NCBI GenBank assembly: GCA_964349145.1
Contig: CAYGFN010000001.1
Location: forward strand, 8,683 to 36,742
Direction of reading: 5' to 3'
Length of the DNA stretch: 28,060 nt
Source: an uncultured Candidatus Saccharibacteria bacterium
GTDB lineage: Bacteria > Patescibacteriota > Minisyncoccia > Phycocordibacterales > UBA2100
Made by a program: the position numbers and the translations under genes. Under the pieces are notes generated by a model, which searched no databases, was not told the DNA's origin, and saw only the letters and a program-made list of their open reading frames with translations. This document shows, piece by piece, positions 530-26,993 of the stretch (the stretch's first letter is position 1; every line of letters starts with the position of its first letter).

Positions 530-901
530 CTAGAGCGTGCACCCGCTTGCCGCGGCGAGCTGCGCACCGGTCAATTCGCCCACCTGACGCGTGCCGTCGG
601 CAAAAATCCACGTCGGGTAGTTCGTTACCTCTTTATCCTTGCACACCTGCAGCTGGCCCTTGCCATCCGGCGTCGAGCATTCGACGTAGGGAAGATCCTT
701 GGCGGCGTTGCCGAACATACGCTTCGTTGCTTGGCAATGTGGGCACCAAAATGCGCCGTAAAACGTCGCTCCCTTCTCCTTCAGACACTGCGCAAGAGGC
801 GCGAGCGCACTTGGTTTTGAGGCAAGATAGATTGCTCCTGCCATAGCGACAAGAAACACGAGCGCTGCGACGGTGAGCCATGTGCGTACTCCCTTTTTCA
901 T
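530..901 (-). CDS. Membrane-anchored thioredoxin-like oxidase (VKOR-associated Trx-like type)
   Basis: N-terminal TM helix, then FYGAFWCPHCQ...LPYVECS...YPTW; TACACT box 7 nt before the ATG. Confidence 0.8.
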   Translation of the reverse strand: MKKGVRTWLTVAALVFLVAMAGAIYLASKPSALAPLAQCLKEKGATFYGAFWCPHCQATKRMFGNAAKDLPYVECSTPDGKGQLQVCKDKEVTNYPTWIFADGTRQVGELTGAQLAAASGCTL

Positions 902-1986: not shown

Positions 1987-2054
1987 TATACCCCGTGAGA
2001 TATGTAACTACTAATTTCCCTAGGAAGAACGACTGGATTATCTCATGGGGTATA
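1987..2054 (+). repeat. Inverted-repeat element, family A copy 1 (36-nt interior)
   Basis: TATACCCCGTGAGATA (1987-2002) ... TATCTCATGGGGTATA (2039-2054), between the divergent SET gene and hisS. Confidence 0.9.
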
Positions 2055-4962: not shown

Positions 4963-5053
4963 GCGAGTATGTGGCGCGGAATCTCCCGCGGGCGAAGAGC
5001 CGAGGATTAAGGCTTTTCAGTGGGAAAAGCCGGGTTCCGCGCCGCATACTCGC
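4963..5053 (+). repeat. Structured repeat, family B copy 1
   Basis: 21-bp stem (4963-4983/5033-5053, two G-T pairs) enclosing a 49-nt core that is 47/49 identical to 12321-12369. Confidence 0.9.
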
Positions 5054-7392: not shown

Positions 7393-7393
7393 A

Positions 7394-7522
7394 TCATTTA
7401 CCCGCCTGCCCCGTTGGAAGCGTAGCTTTCCAACCGGGGTGATCAACCCCATTAGAGACGCGAAGCGCTCTAATGGGGCACGTGTGAGCGATTATGGAAA
7501 AGTTTCTGATGTTCTGAGACAT
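7394..7522 (-). pseudogene. 42-codon upstream ORF: duplicated lepA N-terminus with two in-frame 36-nt palindromic inserts
   Basis: MSQNIRNFSIIAH[TCPIRALRVSNG]VDH[PGWKATLPTGQA]GK*; TATAGT 8 nt before the ATG; the TGA ends 1 nt before the lepA ATG. Confidence 0.85.
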
Positions 7523-7532
7523 GGAGAGACAC

Positions 7533-7600
7533 TATACCCCGTGAGATAAAAGAACTCTAATTACCTGAACTGCGCGGGACGATGTATCTCATGGGGTATA
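7533..7600 (+). repeat. Inverted-repeat element, family A copy 2 (36-nt interior)
   Basis: TATACCCCGTGAGATA (7533-7548) ... TATCTCATGGGGTATA (7585-7600). Confidence 0.9.
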
Positions 7601-7613
7601 CCCCACTCATCGC

Positions 7614-9323
7614 CTACGCGCTCGTCGTCGTGCCGGGACCTTCTGCAGACGTCACAATCGTGACTTCTGGCAATGTCTTTGCACTCCAGATGCGCGCATG
7701 GAGAGACGCATACGTCTCGTTGAATTCACGACTTCCCAGTAAACGATAGGTGAATCCTGCGACCAATATGCCGCATACCCCGGCTGCAAATCCCTGCACA
7801 AAAATCGAAAGTGCGGTCGATGAGACGACAAACGAGCTTGCAAGTCCCAAAAAGATGTACGCGGCGAGGCCTGCGGCGCATGCTGCAAGCACACTGTCGA
7901 GCAGCGCCGACGCTATCTGGCGAAGCAAGCCCCTGAAGTGCCATTCGAAATGCAGGACAAGCACCACCGCACCCACGATAATTGCAATCGCATACGCACA
8001 CGCGAGGATAAGCACGTTGCTTCCCGAAATATCATCCACGCGCAAGAGCCGCTCTACGAAGCCAAGTATTCGCTGGTCAGTCGTTACGAACAACCCTACC
8101 GCTGCTACCCCGAGCGTGGTGAGAGCCACTCCTGCTGAAACCACGAGGGGTACAAGTGTTTTGCCCGCCGCATAGTATCCTCGCATCAGAAGGAGCGTAA
8201 GACCTTGTGCGGCGAGCGCGCTTGCAATCAGTGCAAACGCCGCAGCGGTAAGGCGAGTGTCGTTCCAACTGAATGCACCCGTCCCGAGAATCACGCGGAC
8301 AATGTGCGCACGGAGGACGAGGATGAGTGCGCTCGCCGGAATAGACCAGAAAAATACATAGCGCGCGGCGATAGCGACATGACGGACGAATTCCTCTGTC
8401 TCTCCTCGAGAGAGCGCACGCGCAAGCGTCGGGAATGCCGCGACCGAGTATGATGCCCCAATAACCGCAAGCGGCACTGCGGCAAGATTGAAGGCAAACA
8501 TAAAGACCGCAATCGATCCTGTGGCAAGCAATCCCGCGAATACCGTAAGTCCGAGGAAGGTCAATTGATTCATGGAGAGCGCAAGTGCTCGCGGTACCGA
8601 TATTGCTGCCGTCGTGAGGAGTGCGCGCGGGTCACGCAGCGTTGGCATTCGGCGAAAAAATCCATCGCCAATGAGAGACGGCACCTGAATCGCCGCATGG
8701 AGGGTGGCACCAATCACGACGCCCCATCCGAGACCCGCTATCCCCCACAGCGGATACAAAACAAGGACGCCGAAAATGATGCCCGCATTGTAGAGAAGCG
8801 GCGAGATAGCATAGAGCGCATAGCGCTCTCGTACCTGTGTCACGCCGGCGAGAATGTTTGAGAGGCCGAGAAGAATCGGCTGCAGGAGAAGAATACGAGT
8901 GATGAGAGTGAGATGTTCGCCTTGTCCCGCCGCGATGAGGACAGGAAAGAGCCTCTCAAGAATATGCGGAGCAAGAAGCGCAGCGCCCGCAGACACACAA
9001 ACGGCAAACGCGGAGAATCCTACGACAATCGTGTCAATGTAATCTTTTTGCTCGTCTCGATTTCTCCTGGTCAGTTCCGGAATAAGAATGTACACGGACA
9101 CGAGAGCACCCGTGGCCACGAAGATAAGGTCAGGTATGCGAAACCCCGCATAATAGACATCCAAGAGTGTTGATGCCCCAAACGCGTCAGCAAACATTCT
9201 GTCGCGAACGAGTGCGAGGAGCGACGAGAGGAGTGCCGCAACCGCCAAAATGGAGGCGGCAGCGTGCAAACCCCGTACCTCCGACGAAAGATAGCGAAGT
9301 GCGTTTCGAGCAAAGAGCGCCAT
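7614..9323 (-). CDS. murJ: Lipid II flippase MurJ/MviN
   Basis: SSLLALVRDRMFADAFGAS, DVYYAGFRIPDLIF, PLAVIGASYSVAAFPTLA, LMRGYYA; about 14 TM segments. Confidence 0.9.
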   Translation of the reverse strand: MALFARNALRYLSSEVRGLHAAASILAVAALLSSLLALVRDRMFADAFGASTLLDVYYAGFRIPDLIFVATGALVSVYILIPELTRRNRDEQKDYIDTIVVGFSAFAVCVSAGAALLAPHILERLFPVLIAAGQGEHLTLITRILLLQPILLGLSNILAGVTQVRERYALYAISPLLYNAGIIFGVLVLYPLWGIAGLGWGVVIGATLHAAIQVPSLIGDGFFRRMPTLRDPRALLTTAAISVPRALALSMNQLTFLGLTVFAGLLATGSIAVFMFAFNLAAVPLAVIGASYSVAAFPTLARALSRGETEEFVRHVAIAARYVFFWSIPASALILVLRAHIVRVILGTGAFSWNDTRLTAAAFALIASALAAQGLTLLLMRGYYAAGKTLVPLVVSAGVALTTLGVAAVGLFVTTDQRILGFVERLLRVDDISGSNVLILACAYAIAIIVGAVVLVLHFEWHFRGLLRQIASALLDSVLAACAAGLAAYIFLGLASSFVVSSTALSIFVQGFAAGVCGILVAGFTYRLLGSREFNETYASLHARIWSAKTLPEVTIVTSAEGPGTTTSA

Positions 9324-9324
9324 A

Positions 9325-11643
9325 CTAGCGCGTCGGCTTCGCGGGCTCTTCTCGCATCTGTCCGTTGAGTTGCGCTTCGGTAAGCTCGCGCCCTGCGGTT
9401 ATGTCCGCAATAAGTTGCGCAGCCACTTTCTGCGACGGATCAATCTCCTGTAATCGCTTAAAGGATTCGAGTGCGTCCGCTTTATTCCCTGCCCGATAGC
9501 GACTCAGCCCAAGTAAAAACTCCGCGTTTGCAAACTGCGGCTGAATGACAAGCGCTTGCTGCAGTGCAGCCACCGCTTCTGGATAACGCTTCGCTGCGTA
9601 TGAGATGACACCGAGGTTGTACCACGCCTGCGCATCTTCACGAGCATATTGCACAGCGCCCGTCGCTGCTTGGAATGCGTTCTCATAATCGGCTTTTCCC
9701 GCATATATCTGCGAAGCCAGATAGTAGGCCACTGCAAAATTCGCTTTGAGCTCTACCGCACGAGTGAGGAGTGCGAGCGCTCTGTCCGGATTCTTCTGCA
9801 AGATCTCGAGCTGAGCAAGATTCACATACGGTACCGGAAACGTCGGGTTCTCTGCAAGCGCTCGCTCGAAGGCGGCGCGCGCGCTGTCATATGCCCCCTC
9901 CACATTTGATCCCGCAAGCTGCGCGTAGAGAGACGCAAGGACCAGCCAATTTTGATAATTACCGCCATCGATTTCGACTGCCGCAAGGCCGTGCTTAATG
10001 GTCTCCTCAAGGGTGACCTTCAGCTTTGCTTTTGTGGCTTCGTCGTCAGGATTCTTCGACGCATTGAGCTCTTGGAGTGAGAGCAGTCCGAGCTGCACAG
10101 CTGAGGTGTGTGCGCGATCGCTTCCCGCGTGCACGCGAAGTGCAAACTTCATGTGGTTCGACGCAGATTCGATGTTTTTTGACTCGTTGTACACGAATAT
10201 TCCCTTGTTTACGATTGCTTCGGCTGTACCAATCCGCACGAGTGCACCCGAAGCGAATATCAGCGCAATACCTGAGAGAACTGCCGTCGAGAAAAATACG
10301 TGATGTACTGCCCCGCCCTTTGCCATGCTAAACGTACGCATCCGCACAAACGCAGGGACTGACAGCGCGACGAGGAGCCCCGCGAGAAAGAACATCAGTA
10401 TCACGATGGTGGTACCGGGAGATGAAACGGCGTACAGGGCGAAGAGATACAGGGTCGCGACAGAGAGCGGAAGCGCGATGGAGATTGCGGCAGTCTCGGT
10501 AGACGAAAACCAGAGCCTCACGACGAGCGCGGTCATCGCGAGCATAAATGCAATCCACGCAAAAAGCCCGAGTAGCCCGACGGTGATGAATGATGTGGCA
10601 ATCGGCGCGGCACCGACGCTGAAATCGACGTTCCAGAAATCTGTTTGATTCACATCAAGAGATTTATGAAGCCCCCATTCTCGATTGAACGTGTTGGGGC
10701 CGGCACCCACGAGGAGCGCGAGGGGGCGAGCAAGCGATTGCTGGCCAATCGCAAACGTGCCCGCAAACGAAGGTCGCACATCAGTCTGCACGACGCGGAT
10801 TTGGGCCGGTAGTACATTTACAACAAACGAGCCGAATACGAGTATGAAGAGTGTGACCAGTGCGCCCGAGAGGAGTGTGACGTTGCCGTCCCACCACCGC
10901 TCTCGTGCGGCAACCTTGGCTCGATACATGTGCACCGCACTCAATACAAGCAGTGCGCACATGATTGCGAAAAGTACGTCGAAGAAACTCGCAAGCAGGA
11001 GAAAGGCTCCGGCGAGTATTGCGCACGTCCACGCTACATACCGCCACCACGAAGCCGTGACCGCGGTGCCCAGCATCGCAAGACTAAGAAATCCCGCGAG
11101 GCCGGCAAACATCGAGAATTCATGCCAATTTCCAAGCAGGTTGCCTGTCTGACCAGCAAGGAGTCCACCGATTGACAGTGACGGGAATACAAAATGTACG
11201 ATTTCGACGACTAAGAGGACCAATCCTCCGACCAGTAGCGCCCGCATGGCGCTCACGACTTTGCCGGGGTGCATAGAAAACACGCTCGCTGAGAGCGCGA
11301 ACAGTGCAAACCCAACACAGACAAAAGCGAGCGTATCAATCTCGGCACCTGTCCCGACGAGCGACACGCCTTCGAATCCTGTCAGCGCCGAGGAGATGGC
11401 GTATGCAAGGGGCACGAGAATGGCAGCAAAAAGAGAACTTGCCCACGGAATTTTCACTCCCCCTTCAGTAAAGCGCGCGACAAGCCACAGTACGCCGGCC
11501 ACAAGCAGAATCGAGGCGACGATTAAGATCTTGGCTCGTCCGAGAACGATCCACGGAATCGGCATCGCGATGAATGGTATGAGCCCCATGAGTACGACGA
11601 GAATGAGGCGCACAAATCCATCCAAGCGTTCACTCGTATGCAT
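9325..11643 (-). CDS. Multi-TM protein (O-antigen ligase-like) with C-terminal TPR repeats
   Basis: About 12-13 TM segments, LLVGAGPNTF loop, TPR signatures (AWYNLGVISY, AEFLLGLSRY); TATTAT 7 nt before ATG 11643. Confidence 0.75.
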   Translation of the reverse strand: MHTSERLDGFVRLILVVLMGLIPFIAMPIPWIVLGRAKILIVASILLVAGVLWLVARFTEGGVKIPWASSLFAAILVPLAYAISSALTGFEGVSLVGTGAEIDTLAFVCVGFALFALSASVFSMHPGKVVSAMRALLVGGLVLLVVEIVHFVFPSLSIGGLLAGQTGNLLGNWHEFSMFAGLAGFLSLAMLGTAVTASWWRYVAWTCAILAGAFLLLASFFDVLFAIMCALLVLSAVHMYRAKVAARERWWDGNVTLLSGALVTLFILVFGSFVVNVLPAQIRVVQTDVRPSFAGTFAIGQQSLARPLALLVGAGPNTFNREWGLHKSLDVNQTDFWNVDFSVGAAPIATSFITVGLLGLFAWIAFMLAMTALVVRLWFSSTETAAISIALPLSVATLYLFALYAVSSPGTTIVILMFFLAGLLVALSVPAFVRMRTFSMAKGGAVHHVFFSTAVLSGIALIFASGALVRIGTAEAIVNKGIFVYNESKNIESASNHMKFALRVHAGSDRAHTSAVQLGLLSLQELNASKNPDDEATKAKLKVTLEETIKHGLAAVEIDGGNYQNWLVLASLYAQLAGSNVEGAYDSARAAFERALAENPTFPVPYVNLAQLEILQKNPDRALALLTRAVELKANFAVAYYLASQIYAGKADYENAFQAATGAVQYAREDAQAWYNLGVISYAAKRYPEAVAALQQALVIQPQFANAEFLLGLSRYRAGNKADALESFKRLQEIDPSQKVAAQLIADITAGRELTEAQLNGQMREEPAKPTR

Positions 11644-11726
11644 AGTGCCGATAATAGCACGGGCTCTCTCGCAAGAAGCAGGTGTGGATTTTGCGTGTAG
11701 GCCTTTACGAGACAGCCACAAATACG

Positions 11727-11732
11727 TATAAT
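11727..11732 (+). promoter_or_regulatory. -10 box of rnpB
   Basis: Perfect TATAAT 6-7 nt upstream of the predicted P1 helix. Confidence 0.7.
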
Positions 11733-11738
11733 GAAAGC

Positions 11739-12170
11739 CGCGTCAGACAGCCGCCCCGTGAGATAAGGCGTTCGAGATATTCTAGTTAAGTCGGGCATCA
11801 CTCACAGTCCCGCTTAGCATGGAAATCGGAATGTGTTATCTCATGGGGAGGAAAGTCCGGACACGCACCCGCCCTTTCTTAGAAAGAGCGGGTAGCAAGG
11901 TAGCGGGTAACACTCGTCGTGCGAGAGCATAGGGTTGCGAACAGAGACGCCAAGGCCGAGAGGCTGCGGGCTCCGCAAGGAGTAGCTCTGGTGGAAACAT
12001 CAGAGGTGCAACGGCAAAAAACCTACCTGCGTGCAAGACCGTGTTCGTCGGGAACCAATTGGACCTGACGAAAGAGTCGCTCGAGGTGTGTGGCAACACA
12101 CATCCCAGATACATGGCTGTCATAAGTGTCGCCGCAAGGCTCCCTTAACAGAATCCGGCTTATCGATGCG
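11739..12170 (+). ncRNA. rnpB: RNase P RNA with extended P3
   Basis: GAGGAAAGTCC (11848-) and ACAGAATCCGGCTTA P4 halves; P2 GACAGCC/GGCTGTC; P1 CGCGTC/GATGCG; GCAAG and CCCAGATACATG conserved segments. Confidence 0.93.
11754..11848 (+). repeat. Inverted-repeat element, family A copy 3 (71-nt interior), inside rnpB
   Basis: CCCCGTGAGATA (11754-11765) ... TATCTCATGGGG (11837-11848); lacks the outer TATA. Confidence 0.9.
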
Positions 12171-12177
12171 ACGAACG

Positions 12178-12203
12178 AGCGAAGCGTAAAAGCTTCGCTT
12201 TTT
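12178..12203 (+). terminator. Intrinsic terminator of rnpB
   Basis: AGCGAAGC-gtaaaa-GCTTCGCT followed by a T run. Confidence 0.7.
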
Positions 12204-12251
12204 CGTTTCCGAGTGAGGAGCATCGCTTTCGCGAAGCGAAAGTTGCGACGC

Positions 12252-12279
12252 GCAAAAGGACCCGAAAGGGTCCTTTTGC
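12252..12279. terminator. Bidirectional terminator hairpin between rnpB and nrdJ
   Basis: GCAAAAGGACCC-GAAA-GGGTCCTTTTGC, perfect 12-bp stem. Confidence 0.75.
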
Positions 12280-12300
12280 TTTCAGATACCAGAGCGAGTG

Positions 12301-12389
12301 TAATCCCGTATTTCAGAACCTCCCGCAGGCGAAGAGCCGAGGATTAAGGCTTTTCAGTGGGAAAGGCCGGGTTCTGAAATACGGGATTA
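12301..12389 (+). repeat. Structured repeat, family B copy 2
   Basis: Perfect 20-bp stem (12301-12320/12370-12389) around the 49-nt core shared with 4984-5032. Confidence 0.9.
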
Positions 12390-17358: not shown

Positions 17359-18753
17359 CTAGGGCAAATCGATTTGAGGCTCGCTCTCGGCTCGCATCGG
17401 CACATCAAATATTGAATGCGGTACGTCCTCTCCCGCGAGATGTCGCGAAATTTTGCGGCCTCCGTATACCGAGGGCAGAATGCCGACGCCGTTGCATCCG
17501 AGATTGTAGAGTAAAACCGGATTTTGCGGCTCGCTTCCGATGAGGCGCATGCCATTTTTTGTATACCCCATCAGTCCATGCCACGTGAATACGTAGTCGA
17601 TCTTTCTGTTTGGCTCCGCATCGTAGACGTGATGTACAAATGAATCGATTTTGTCCGCCATTTCATCAGGGTAGTCGCTCTCAAACGAGTACGGCGCCGT
17701 CTCTTCTATATCAATATCCGGCCCGCCGATTGAAATCAGATTGTGCTCGGCGCCCTTCTCATACTCGTATGGCCGGCGTGTTAGATAGAAGTACGAATTA
17801 TCCGCACCCGCCGAGGGGTCAGCATAATAGCTAATTGCTATCGGTAATTTGTTCATGCGCTCGAGATAGCCCGACATGTAGCCGATCTTCCCTGAGAGCA
17901 GGTGATGGTACTTGGCATCGATGTCGAGTCCCGTGTCATTGAGAATATGTATGCTCTCGAACCCGTTCGTGCACAAAACGATACGACCTGCGGTCACGAC
18001 GTGTGTGTCCGCATCGACGAGCGCATGGTCACTTTTGAGCACAATCTTATGGACCGGCGTGTGTTCGTAGAGTGCAAATCGATTCTGATATTTCTCCTGC
18101 AAGAAGGTCACCACTTCCTGACAAAAAAGTGCGCTGTTGACGCAGCCCTTCTGCGAAGAAACCACCGCAATATAATCAGTCACGTGAGTCTCCAACATGC
18201 TGAGCACATCGCTATGCGGGATGACATCGTAAAGTCCCGCGTACTCCGCCGGAATATCGCTTGATATGTTTGCATGATCCGATATGTGCACGACAGCAAA
18301 CCGAACACCCGCCTCGCGTTTTGCATGATTGTTTTTCAAATGCCAGATAACTTGCTCCAAGCTGGTAAGCCCGCCGTGGCCAATAAAGCGCGAGAATGGA
18401 ATATCAAGGCCGGCATCCGAATACATTTCGTCGAGCAATTCCCACGCATCATCGATGGCTTTTTGGCCAGCCGCCGCGAGCTCGGCACCAAACTCCTCGA
18501 CCATGCTCGCAAATCCTCGCTCAAAATAGCTCACCACTTGTCCGGCATTATGACCCGTTGCGCCGTGAGCCAATCGATGGCGCTCGACGAGCGCAACGCT
18601 TTTATCGGTATATTTGAGAGTGAAATATGCGGTCGCTGTGCCCGCGATTCCCGCACCTATGATGGCGACGTCTACCGCTGTGTCGCGTGAGAGCCGCTCC
18701 GCTTCGCGCGTATTATCCAGCTGATGCAGCCACGGAGAATGATTCTTTCGCAT
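17359..18753 (-). CDS. FAD-dependent oxidoreductase, DAO/PuuB-like
   Basis: IIGAGIAG Rossmann motif, HGATGHNAG, TWHGLMGYT, LGCNGVG; TATAAT 7 nt before ATG 18753. Confidence 0.85.
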   Translation of the reverse strand: MRKNHSPWLHQLDNTREAERLSRDTAVDVAIIGAGIAGTATAYFTLKYTDKSVALVERHRLAHGATGHNAGQVVSYFERGFASMVEEFGAELAAAGQKAIDDAWELLDEMYSDAGLDIPFSRFIGHGGLTSLEQVIWHLKNNHAKREAGVRFAVVHISDHANISSDIPAEYAGLYDVIPHSDVLSMLETHVTDYIAVVSSQKGCVNSALFCQEVVTFLQEKYQNRFALYEHTPVHKIVLKSDHALVDADTHVVTAGRIVLCTNGFESIHILNDTGLDIDAKYHHLLSGKIGYMSGYLERMNKLPIAISYYADPSAGADNSYFYLTRRPYEYEKGAEHNLISIGGPDIDIEETAPYSFESDYPDEMADKIDSFVHHVYDAEPNRKIDYVFTWHGLMGYTKNGMRLIGSEPQNPVLLYNLGCNGVGILPSVYGGRKISRHLAGEDVPHSIFDVPMRAESEPQIDLP

Positions 18754-18762
18754 CGGGCAGAT

Positions 18763-18864
18763 TATACCCCGTAAGATATCTATTCGAGAACATTGATCTA
18801 TCAAGATCAAACTGCTTTGCGCGAGTGTGGTACTTGGCGCGGCGTCCTTATCTCATGGGGTATA
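18763..18864 (+). repeat. Inverted-repeat element, family A copy 4 (70-nt interior)
   Basis: TATACCCCGTAAGATA (18763-18778) ... TATCTCATGGGGTATA (18849-18864). Confidence 0.88.
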
Positions 18865-23303: not shown

Positions 23304-23391
23304 TGGCGGAGGCGGAGAGATTCGAACTCTCGGTGCCTTGCGACACTCGTCCTTTCCAGGGACGTGCACTAGACCACTATGCGACGCCTCC
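23304..23391 (-). tRNA. tRNA-Ser(GGA), CCA encoded
   Basis: 88-nt class II cloverleaf GGAGGCG/CGCCTCC, anticodon loop CT-GGA-AA, long variable arm GTGTC-GCAA-GGCAC. Confidence 0.93.
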
Positions 23392-23634
23392 TCCTGAACC
23401 AAACTCTCGTTTGATTTGCTCTCTCTTATAACCTTTCTTATACTCGCGCTCAACACGAACTGATTCAAGCTCGGAACTCACTTCGATACTCTTGAGCAAA
23501 TCGAATGGTCGACGAGACTTCGTAGACGGCACGGCGCCGCGATTGTGCTCAGAGATTCGCCTTTCCAAATCATTTGTACGACCTACGTACAAATTGCCAT
23601 CCTTTTGACTCCGCAGTATGTAAACGAAAAACAT
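23377..23634 (-). CDS. Small stand-alone GIY-YIG nuclease
   Basis: FVYILRS...LYVGRTNDLERRISEHNRG...STKSRRPF; the last codons overlap the first 15 nt of tRNA-Ser. Confidence 0.9.
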   Translation of the reverse strand: MFFVYILRSQKDGNLYVGRTNDLERRISEHNRGAVPSTKSRRPFDLLKSIEVSSELESVRVEREYKKGYKREQIKREFGSGGGVA

Positions 23635-24211: not shown

Positions 24212-25105
24212 TTAGATGTGCATGCCCTGCAGCGCTGCGATGCGCTCTTCCACGGGTGGGTGCGTCGCGAAAAGTTTGCGCATGAGCGAGCCCTTGTTGC
24301 TCGGACCAAATGGATTCGAGATGTAGAGGTGCGCCGTGGCGCTCGTCGCGTGCTGCACGGGCGCTCCGTGGCTCGCAATCTTGTTCAGCGCGTTCGCCAA
24401 TCCCTCCGGGTAGCGCGTAAGAAGAGCGCCCGAGGCGTCGGCGAGGAATTCTCGCTTTCTTGAAATCGCGAGGTGTATGAGCTGCGCTGCTATCGGAGCG
24501 AGGATGAGACCAATGAATCCGACCACGAGGATAATGGGATTGACGTTGCGGTCTCGCCCCTCGCCGCCAAAAAGGCTCACGCGGAAAAGCATGTCTGCGA
24601 TGACCGAAAGGAATCCCGCGAGCACCACCGCGACCGTCATGACGAGAATATCGCGATTGCCGATGTGCGAGAGCTCGTGCGCGATGACCCCTTCGAGCTC
24701 TGCTCGGTCGAGCCTCGCGAGGAGGCCAGTCGTCACGGCAATCACCGAATGCTCGGGGTTTCTGCCTGTCGCAAATGCGTTTGGTGCGTCATCTTGGATG
24801 ATGTATACGCGCGGTTTCGGGAGCCCTGCCGTAATCGCAAGATTCTCAACGATGCGATGCAGTTCGAGATACTGCGTGGGATCTGCTTCTCGTGCGTGAG
24901 CTGATGAGAGTGCGATTCTATCCGAAAACCAAAACGCCGTGACGTTCATGCCAATGGAGAATGCGACCGCTACCCAGAGATACACGGGAGAGCCCATGTA
25001 GAGCGACACGAACCATCCGACCGCAATCACCACGAGGAAGAACCCCGTCATAAGTATCCAGGTCTTGGTTATGTTCTTGCCTTGCTGTGTGTAGAGTGAT
25101 GCCAT
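24212..25105 (-). CDS. htpX: Zinc metalloprotease HtpX (M48)
   Basis: APNAFATGRNP, GVIAHELSHI, ISRKREFLADASGA, ATHPPVEERI. Confidence 0.95.
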   Translation of the reverse strand: MASLYTQQGKNITKTWILMTGFFLVVIAVGWFVSLYMGSPVYLWVAVAFSIGMNVTAFWFSDRIALSSAHAREADPTQYLELHRIVENLAITAGLPKPRVYIIQDDAPNAFATGRNPEHSVIAVTTGLLARLDRAELEGVIAHELSHIGNRDILVMTVAVVLAGFLSVIADMLFRVSLFGGEGRDRNVNPIILVVGFIGLILAPIAAQLIHLAISRKREFLADASGALLTRYPEGLANALNKIASHGAPVQHATSATAHLYISNPFGPSNKGSLMRKLFATHPPVEERIAALQGMHI

Positions 25106-25114
25106 GGGGTTCAG

Positions 25115-25215
25115 TATACCCCGTGAGATATTCCGTCGGAATACCTCAAAATTCGCGTATTCTCGTCACGTTTCATTCTAGTTGCAACGCTATACTTTAT
25201 ATCTCATGGGGTATA
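25115..25215 (+). repeat. Inverted-repeat element, family A copy 5 (69-nt interior)
   Basis: TATACCCCGTGAGATA (25115-25130) ... TATCTCATGGGGTATA (25200-25215). Confidence 0.9.
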
Positions 25216-26324: not shown

Positions 26325-26882
26325 CTAGAAACTGACTGCGACAGGATTCTTGGCAGCCTGTTCACCTTCTGCGAGCTCGAAGAATTCGCTCTCTTTAAAT
26401 CCGAAACCCTTCGCGATGAGATTCGATGGGAAAGATTGCACCTTCGTGTTCAATTCCTGCACCACTGAATTGTAGAAGCGGCGGGCAGCCTGAATCTTAT
26501 TTTCTGTGTCCGAGAGTTCACGCTGCAACTCTACGAAGCTCGCGTTGGCTTTGAGATCCGGATACGCTTCCGATACAGCAAAGAGTGATTTGAGTGCTCC
26601 GGCAAGCATGTTTTCTGCCTGTGTGTGCTCCCCCACTGTCTGTGCACCCATCGCTGCAGTGCGCGCATCGGTCACCTTCTGAAGCGTGCCTGCTTCATGC
26701 GCGGCATATCCCTTGACCGTCTCTACGAGATTCGGGATGAGGTCGAAACGACGCTTAAACTGGACTTCGATATCCGACCATGCCTCTTTGACACGGTTAA
26801 CGAGCGTGATGAAACGGTTGTAGGCGCCGATTACGTAGAGAACGAGGACAGCTGCTACTCCTAAAAGAATGTATGTAGTCAT
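26325..26882 (-). CDS. lemA: LemA family protein
   Basis: AWSDIEVQFKRRFDLIPNLVETVKGYAAHE, EAYPDLKAN, ENKIQAARRFYN. Confidence 0.95.
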   Translation of the reverse strand: MTTYILLGVAAVLVLYVIGAYNRFITLVNRVKEAWSDIEVQFKRRFDLIPNLVETVKGYAAHEAGTLQKVTDARTAAMGAQTVGEHTQAENMLAGALKSLFAVSEAYPDLKANASFVELQRELSDTENKIQAARRFYNSVVQELNTKVQSFPSNLIAKGFGFKESEFFELAEGEQAAKNPVAVSF

Positions 26883-26892
26883 ATGCGAGAAG

Positions 26893-26993
26893 TATACCCC
26901 GTGAGATATAAAAATCTACCTTCACAATCCTTTCATGTAGCATGTCAAATACCGACCGATGTCAGCAATCGAACGCATGTCTCATGGGGATAC
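26893..26993 (+). repeat. Inverted-repeat element, family A copy 6 (69-nt interior, degenerate right arm)
   Basis: TATACCCCGTGAGATA (26893-26908) ... TGTCTCATGGGGATAC (26978-26993). Confidence 0.85.

Follow-up and report, generated by a model that had tools for sequence, protein, structure and literature searches.

We analyzed a window of 28,060 nucleotides from the genome of a bacterium of the Candidate Phyla Radiation (CPR), with emphasis on helix P3 of the RNase P RNA that it encodes (gene rnpB). The two strands of this helix are the 12-nt arms of a hairpin that recurs throughout the genome. Very probably, P3 of this RNA, the only RNase P RNA of the genome, consists of the inverted repeats at the ends of a mobile element that is bounded by a hairpin, carries a GIY-YIG gene and usually resides in P3 in CPR bacteria; the copy present here is devoid of an open reading frame (ORF), and the dispersed copies would belong to the same family. 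The P3-resident form is widespread, often ORF-bearing and patchy in its distribution. A selfish element would here have been turned into a structural part of a core tRNA-processing ribozyme in an ultra-small CPR bacterium. More generally, mobile DNA could become a load-bearing helix of a highly conserved ribozyme, which would be a route for structural RNAs to gain expansion segments.

The RNase P RNA gene and its helix P3

The source genome (labelled G000; the other G-numbers designate genus or order relatives and the C-numbers contigs) amounts to 831 kb in 100 contigs with 55% GC, is 91% complete and is of the small-genome CPR/Patescibacteria type. A permissive Infernal scan of positions 11600-12350 identified a class-A RNase P RNA at 11735-12178 (+). 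The match covers RF00010 positions 1-367 (94.9 bits, E=1.5e-29) and is thus full-length, including the universal conserved region I (CR-I, GAGGAAAGUCC) and the P4 region, where GAGGAAAGUCCGG is exact. Because this score lies slightly below the Rfam gathering score of 100 bits, the gene is absent from a standard Rfam scan, which reported four tRNAs only and no rnpB over the whole window. The shortfall is due to a 75-nt insertion in P3 together with changes in other helices, and scores below the cut-off were also obtained in 9 of the 29 relatives' genomes having a match. The rnpB of such genomes is therefore overlooked by standard annotation, and CPR completeness checks are distorted. No other RF00010 match was found in the source genome. 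Since rnpA is also encoded (PF00825, 64 bits) and no PIN_5/HARP protein-only RNase P was found in this 91% complete genome, this rnpB should be the working gene.

Alignment to RF00010 by Infernal places P3 directly between P2 and CR-I, as a 9-bp helix (CCCCGUGAG / CUCAUGGGG) that lies exactly on the arms, the remainder being the 75-nt insertion in the P3 loop. This position had been proposed in an initial annotation made from the sequence alone, whose coordinates for P2 (GACAGCC, 11746-11752) and for the start of GAGGAAAGTCC at 11848, and whose 71-nt interval between the arms, were all found again on the sequence. One G separates P2 from the left arm, and the right arm ends with the G that opens GAGGAAAGTCC (11848-11858). 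The arms differ from perfect complementarity by a G/T asymmetry. As had been stated, it gives a G-U pair on the transcribed strand of rnpB; on the opposite strand it gives an A.C mismatch. They match the arms of the dispersed family at 24 of 24 nt, the asymmetric position included.

Such a structure could in principle result from a chimeric assembly at a repeat or from a sequence coincidence. Repeats do break assemblies, and the contig of one relative (G086) ends inside its P3 element. We nevertheless consider both explanations extremely improbable and have rejected them. Two separate sequencing runs of one study yielded contigs that span the whole P3 element without differences, and the same junction is present in six other genus genomes and in 26 species-level genomes. 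As for coincidence, the 24-nt match, asymmetry included, is to be compared with 0.09 arm matches expected per window. A group I or group II intron was likewise discarded, as no covariance model of either type matched within 11600-12350 at E up to 10.

The 71-nt interior of the P3 copy contains no ORF. We found no relative of it elsewhere in the source genome; its homologues are the interiors of P3 in G017, G119 and G076. Across 116 genus genomes, a pattern drawn from its start, admittedly a narrow one, matched only in rnpB genes. The P3 copy and the dispersed copies share the arms and one A-U pair only. The claim that a dispersed copy forms P3 thus holds for the arms but not for the interior, which belongs to a lineage confined to rnpB and has no relative in the genome.

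Arms and interior are predicted to fold with -49.2 kcal/mol (z=-8.6) on the (+) strand, against -27.6 on the (-) strand, as a stem of at least 13 bp prolonged into a rod of about 39 bp in the rnpB sense. All eight ORF-less rnpB-resident copies fold as rods of 32-39 bp with 4-6 G-U pairs, and in each of them the rnpB-sense fold is the more stable one by 7-22 kcal/mol. In their alignment, 93.5% of the cells pair and six pairs show a compensatory change; the covariation score of 0.29 compares with 0.18 in shuffles (0 of 500) and also lies above every slid control. In the arms, the compensatory changes lead from A-U to G-C (pair 8) and from C-G to A-U (pair 1). Among the interiors of the dispersed copies, no shared RNA fold and, with the arms excluded, no consistent strand preference was found. 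The sense-specific rods and the compensatory changes, which set the rnpB copies apart from these interiors, suggest selection on the transcript.

The dispersed family and its full-length form

In the window, the arm 12-mer with up to one mismatch is found 11 times where 0.09 occurrences are expected (0 of 100 shuffles). Its R-degenerate form occurs 79 times in the genome, pairing into about 40 elements, the interiors of which fall into two length classes, 34-36 nt (one of 39 nt) and 66-75 nt, and are mostly unrelated to one another. The G/T asymmetry is retained in 35 of the 40 copies. Identical 4-nt flanks border 33 of the 40 (28 with TATA, two with TCAA and one each with CATG, TACA and TAGA), and the flank consensus, (A/G)G-TATA...TATA-C(C/T), points to a GTATAC-like target. 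Copies 1, 2 and 4 of the window are missing from the sister species G005 (LepA 92% identical), where clean empty sites correspond to the filled ones. The dispersed hairpin family is mobile, and it combines terminal inverted repeats, target duplication and empty sites as do miniature inverted-repeat transposable elements (MITEs). The P3 copy has no such duplication at its ends: it lacks the flanking TATA, as previously noticed, and its flanks GCCG/AGGA are the only wholly unrelated pair among the 40 copies.

A full-length copy, with its ORF at 660-899 (-), is located on contig C5 of the source genome, where the arms enclose 8 nt, an ATG, 80 codons and a TAA, after which the second arm follows directly. 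The predicted protein is a bare GIY-YIG domain (Pfam GIY-YIG, E=1e-13), with the UPF0213 protein 1ZG2 as closest solved structure (E=0.0015). Altogether, a full-length element measures about 280 bp and its sole coding content is a GIY-YIG protein of 80-82 aa. We know of no transposase function for the GIY-YIG nuclease domain of this partner. The same arms enclose an ORF in P3 of G009 and of 12 other species. The P3 copy of the window, with its terminal inverted repeats at the helix tip of a stable-RNA gene as in a cassette, and without a GIY-YIG ORF between them, is therefore a non-coding derivative or relative of such elements.

Two other readings of the dispersed copies were rejected. They show no replication-strand bias, their orientation being independent of the local GC skew (Mann-Whitney p=0.68). 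Nor do they represent an array of the CRISPR type (clustered regularly interspaced short palindromic repeats), with a 28-nt palindromic repeat and 35-nt spacers, since isolated copies carry only half-palindromes outside, the order is arm-interior-arm, TATA is duplicated and the whole unit is missing at empty sites.

In about 17 of the 40 copies (a count by eye), a gene that reads away from the element has its start codon at 9-11 nt from the G-arm side. In these copies, the duplicated TATA is part of a -10 box similar to TATACT/TATAGT, 6-9 nt before the ATG and without Shine-Dalgarno sequence, which suggests that such element-borne boxes could be promoters for leaderless mRNAs. Copies of this kind are found in the window at 1975-2068, 7520-7600, 18745-18864, 25105-25215 and 26882-26993, as well as genome-wide. 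At the empty sites of G005, the single TATA already holds the -10 position. Around copy 2, 222 nt (7393-7614) separate lepA from the next gene, against 28 nt in G005, and contain a duplicated 5' end of lepA in addition to the copy.

P3 in relatives within and beyond the genus

We compared P3 first in 17 genus and 12 order relatives, nearly all of which possess a plain P3 of 4-11 bp with a GNRA-type loop. Among 116 genus genomes, seven carry an element in P3 with an identical arm/CR-I junction. All seven are rich in the family (23-79 arms). The interior of their P3 is variable. G009 has an intact GIY-YIG ORF of 80 aa and G032 a 78-nt fusion of ORF start and ORF end, i.e. an ORF remnant; G000, G017, G119 and G076 have homologous non-coding hairpins of about 70 nt, and the interior of G086, whose contig ends inside the element, was not recovered.

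At least four changes of P3 state, gains or losses, are required by the LepA tree and by the rnpB tree. P3 of the sister species G005 reads CCCC-GCAA-GGGG and that of the next relative, G072, is an ordinary 7-bp helix. In the rnpB tree, which is weakly resolved outside three branches, G119 is paired with G010 and G017 with G080, in both cases with full support and with a plain P3 in the second member. Sister pairs in which a native-looking P3 stands against an element P3 indicate that the element does replace the native helix, and the native-looking 8-9-bp P3 of G010 and G080 makes repeated replacement likelier than many losses. The proposal that an element replaced P3 is thus supported by the plain P3 of the relatives and by these pairs, but not in the form of a simple jump of a dispersed copy. 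No clustering of element-bearing rnpB cores, as expected from co-conversion tracts, was seen in the poorly resolved rnpB tree. G017 has two rnpB matches, one with a plain P3 (contig C21) and one with the element (C90), and this bin may therefore mix two organisms.

The 22-nt arm/CR-I junction is found in 26 species-level genomes, six of which are genus genomes. Their titles name Parcubacteria/Paceibacterota, Ca. Doudnabacteria, Kaiserbacteria, Nomurabacteria and Minisyncoccia, and three bins bear odd labels; GC contents lie between 35 and 59%, and P2 diverges in sequence. Infernal confirmed RF00010 at five of the six loci scanned, and P3 of the Kaiserbacteria RNA lies on the arms. An intact GIY-YIG ORF of 80-82 aa, in the rnpB sense, occupies P3 in 13 of the 26, and the 12 proteins compared are 58-69% identical to that of contig C5. 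The remaining junctions are followed by ORF remnants of 38-103 nt or by stubs of 8-18 nt, so that a decay series can be drawn. In 5 of the 10 out-of-genus genomes tested, the arms occur in P3 and nowhere else, a result that the initial annotation had named in advance as contradicting a simple insertion of a dispersed copy. Given these sole-copy genomes and the residence in P3 across 26 species, the dispersed family more likely derives from a P3-resident mobile element. P3 is probably the home of the element, the TATA-flanked family being a secondary, lineage-specific expansion. The source sample itself contains the rnpB of a second organism, with the same right arm/CR-I junction (match 11826-11866), another interior and another next helix.

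The opposite direction, with a TATA-type copy, or only the arms of one, entering P3 in the present lineage, for example by recombination, would make the P3 copy a recent offshoot of a genome-wide family. It would fit with the fact that all seven element-P3 genomes of the genus are family-rich, while G005, with only 5 arms in its genome, has no element in P3. It would also account for the G/T asymmetry, which the P3 copy has in common with 35 of the 40 copies, both arms being shared, whereas ORF-bearing P3 copies have perfect G-C arms. We nonetheless find this direction unlikely. The P3 copy displays neither TATA nor any other duplication, and its interior is unrelated to the other copies of the genome and forms an rnpB-only lineage with G017, G119 and G076. 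The high-copy genomes G092 and G102 have a plain P3 and no arm-bounded element in the rnpB stretch read; in G065, P3 is plain as well and an element with the arms of this family sits in P15-17. Finally, the P3-resident form is found in genomes without any dispersed copy.

Several observations weigh against P3 being the home of a mobile element to which all these copies belong. The P3 copy has no target duplication and replaces the whole native hairpin, in which it differs from the dispersed copies. Its G/T asymmetry, mentioned above, hints at some exchange from the dispersed family to P3. The miniature interiors of the source genome show no similarity above shuffles to its full-length interior; we thus rejected the idea that they are internal deletions of the latter, and internal deletion is directly seen only elsewhere (G032, L102). 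The taxonomic breadth is based on inconsistent NCBI titles, GC content and P2 divergence rather than on phylogeny. Lastly, none of the RNA runs searched for the P3 region covers it, and the only transcribed look-alike contig, which spans 11957-12159, comes from a relative.

An origin from a native helix was also considered. In an ancestral CPR RNase P RNA, the arms would have been the ordinary stem of P3; a GIY-YIG gene would have settled in the loop, and helix and gene would have become mobile together. Indeed, neither a target duplication nor remains of a second, native P3 are visible in any P3-resident copy, and the P3 copy is the only one in several genomes. Besides, the outer CCCC/GGGG pairing, of which the last G belongs to GAGGAAAGUCC, fits the C-rich/G-rich P3 consensus of RF00010. 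This origin seems to us still less likely than an entry from the dispersed family, since the P3 stems of most relatives are unrelated, the same behavior is seen in other arm families that have GIY-YIG genes of their own, and the same or compensated arms replace P12, P15-17 and P5-P7 helices, where they cannot be native. The derivation of the family from rnpB P3, which the initial annotation had offered as its second possibility, is therefore sustained by the sole-copy genomes but has to be amended, because the P3 resident is itself a mobile GIY-YIG element and not an ordinary native helix.

These other helices deserve a description. In other genomes, arms of the P3 type, either the same or compensated (GAGATA/TATCTC to GGGATA/TATCCC), replace helices between P5 and P7 (G009), in the P12 region (G017) and in the P15-17 region (G076, G065). 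Their interiors are related without being identical, and none has a duplication. At least two more arm families, both having a GIY-YIG ORF of their own, exist in the source genome. One of them forms a second helix of the rnpB studied here, between P5 and P7, at a position where relatives carry a different native hairpin; elsewhere, its arms (CCCGCCCTTTCT/AGAAAGAGCGGG) enclose a GIY-YIG ORF in a 271-nt interior (contig C2) and a 67-nt interior (C6). The places of this family are C2:25739-25939, C6:19725-19815, C11 and C29, and the same arms are seen in a hairpin of the P9 region of the G009 rnpB. Another hairpin module (containing AATTTTGCCTGCCGCAGGCAGTTGCAAAATCGAGCG) occurs at varied rnpB places, in the 3' region in G080 (locus L073), G009 (L046), G017 (L047) and G076 (L048) and after P5 in G065 (L074), which indicates that rnpB collects several unrelated hairpin families. 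Two GIY-YIG ORFs adjoin tRNA genes: in the window, the ORF 23377-23634 (-) adjoins tRNA-Ser 23307-23391 (-), and a similar case is G000:C78:105-302. Both lie between direct duplications of the 5' part of the tRNA (GGAGGAGGCGTCGCATAGT; CCGGATCGTC), the intact tRNA being downstream.

Proposed mechanism and related systems

We propose that the full-length element resides between P2 and GAGGAAAGUCC in place of the native P3 hairpin, its arms serving as the stem. The copy studied here would be an ORF-less derivative whose interior may have been reshaped into a rod that pairs well only in the rnpB sense, by means of G-U pairs. The element could spread between rnpB alleles through the conserved flanks P2 and CR-I, by homing or gene conversion, through either repair triggered by the nuclease or plain recombination following the uptake of DNA. 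Such a flank-guided spread would explain the identical junctions, the lack of duplications and the patchiness. Dispersed copies insert at (G)TATA(C) with a 4-bp duplication and would probably be served in trans by the predicted nuclease of contig C5, whose gene is intact.

In bacterial RNase P, helix P3 is peripheral and varies in length. The insert would be transcribed within the ribozyme and most likely kept as an extension of this helix, tolerated because P3 points away from the catalytic core. On the other hand, the hairpin could be removed from the transcript in the manner of an rRNA intervening sequence, for example through trimming of the long stem by RNase III. Either a break within P3 or only a short P3 would then be left in the mature ribozyme, to which the interior would contribute nothing. 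The stem of at least 13 bp and the rod of about 39 bp do resemble an RNase III substrate, RNase III is encoded in the genome, and the transcripts of CPR rRNA genes reportedly lack the insertions that these genes carry (PMC11270868, citing Brown et al. 2015). However, the sense-specific G-U pairing and the compensation kept by all eight interiors are signs of selection at the RNA level, although such selection could equally serve processing. On balance, we regard removal as somewhat unlikely, yet less so than the two alternative origins discussed above.

A broader hypothesis, which we put forward tentatively as possible though short of probable, takes the GIY-YIG element of about 280 bp for a homing element that replaces helices and is specialised on RNase P RNA. 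It would land beside CR-I, supply the P3 stem, be expressed from the ribozyme transcript and move between the rnpB alleles of CPR species; after loss of the ORF, it would be retained and reshaped into an expansion segment of the RNA. In certain lineages, it might escape to TATA sites as a MITE-like family giving -10 boxes for leaderless genes. The natural series from intact ORF to remnant, stub and rod offers material on the tolerance for, or the processing of, large P3 inserts by RNase P. The predicted 80-aa nuclease with its 12-bp cognate hairpin, along with the at least two more arm/nuclease pairs, are candidates for new sequence- or structure-specific nucleases.

A full-text literature search for RNase P RNA with GIY-YIG or with CPR insertion retrieved no published description of this arrangement. 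A parallel can be drawn with the non-intron insertions encoding GIY-YIG proteins in CPR 16S and 23S rRNA genes (Tsurumaki et al. 2024, PMC11270868). Both systems share CPR hosts, a small GIY-YIG ORF, a structural RNA gene and no likeness to group I/II introns, and the rRNA insertions mostly lie at the top or base of stem-loops, like the site of the P3 element. However, that study does not mention RNase P RNA, nor does it report inverted-repeat arms, helix-forming ORF-less derivatives or dispersed TATA-flanked copies. Sub-threshold rnpB genes with large helix extensions have also been described in CPR genomes (Lui et al. 2021, PMC8172020) and resemble the present one, but those extensions were not tied to mobile or repeated elements.

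Another comparison concerns the Ssn nucleases together with the SRM/NTS hairpin repeats (Chenal et al. 2025, PMC11893778). In both cases, the nuclease is a small single-domain GIY-YIG protein, its gene is flanked by a cognate sequence dispersed genome-wide, and the repeats are specific to paralogues; here, three or more arm families have an ORF of their own. On the other hand, the SRM repeat is a short hairpin beside the gene, whereas here two arms enclose the gene or the interior as one large hairpin; unlike Ssn/SRM, the present family has target duplications and empty sites and forms helices of an essential RNA. Ssn proteins belong to cd10448 and cleave single-stranded DNA at specific sites next to the hairpin (PMC11893778); the ORF of our element was assigned to Pfam GIY-YIG.

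The family also resembles MITEs and the repetitive extragenic palindromic sequences (REP/REPIN) with their REP-associated tyrosine transposases (RAYT): the elements are short, end in inverted repeats, number in the tens and show target duplications, and miniature non-coding forms coexist with a rare coding form bounded alike. Conservation is lower in the interior than at the ends, which is also the case in REPINs. In contrast to MITEs and REPINs, its only gene encodes a predicted 80-aa GIY-YIG nuclease and no DDE or Y1 transposase, the interiors (34-36 or 66-75 nt) are mostly unrelated, and the rnpB copies replace a whole hairpin without duplication.

[quoted passage not shown] To judge from the title of the work on heterocyst-forming species (Vioque 1997, title in PMC2858038), this is likewise a genome-wide repeat in a peripheral helix of the RNA, but the title refers to tandem short repeats and not to a hairpin element with terminal inverted repeats and a nuclease form.

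The features of the window are collected in Table 1.

Table 1. Positions of rnpB, its helices and the family copies in the window
Feature	Position	Strand	Remarks
Promoter-like site of rnpB, TTTACG-17-TATAAT	11704-11732	+	10/12 matches; second hexamer ends 2 nt before 11735
rnpB, bacterial class A	11735-12178	+	Infernal RF00010
Left arm CCCCGTGAGATA, 5' strand of P3	11754-11765	+	sequence and Infernal
71-nt interior without ORF, predicted long irregular hairpin continuing P3	11766-11836	+	folding, homology
Right arm TATCTCATGGGG, 3' strand of P3	11837-11848	+	final G is first base of universal GAGGAAAGUCC
Second rnpB helix between P5 and P7, arms CCCGCCCTTTCT / AGAAAGAGCGGG, almost no interior	11868-11892	+	other hairpin family
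Intrinsic-terminator-like hairpin at rnpB end	12177-12200	+	ends rnpB
Dispersed copy 1, 36-nt interior, TATA duplication	1987-2054	+	absent in G005, one TATA there
Dispersed copy 2, 36-nt interior, TATA duplication	7533-7600	+	empty site, single TATA in G005
Dispersed copy 4, 70-nt interior, TATA duplication	18763-18864	+	single TATA at matching G005 place
Dispersed copy, 69-nt interior, TATA duplication	25115-25215	+	arm pair and flanks
Dispersed copy, 69-nt interior, right arm with one change, right flank ATAC	26893-26993	+	arm search

The neighborhood of rnpB has also been rearranged. With respect to the flanking genes, the segment 11593-12403 is inverted when compared with positions 19015-19795 of contig C5 of G005: lepA and rnpB are on the same strand in G005 and in all other genus genomes locating both, and on opposite strands in the source genome. 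A small ORF found beside rnpB in G005 is missing here. Just downstream of rnpB, at 12301-12389, a perfect 20-nt inverted repeat surrounds a 49-nt core that is 95% identical to a copy near 4979-5037.

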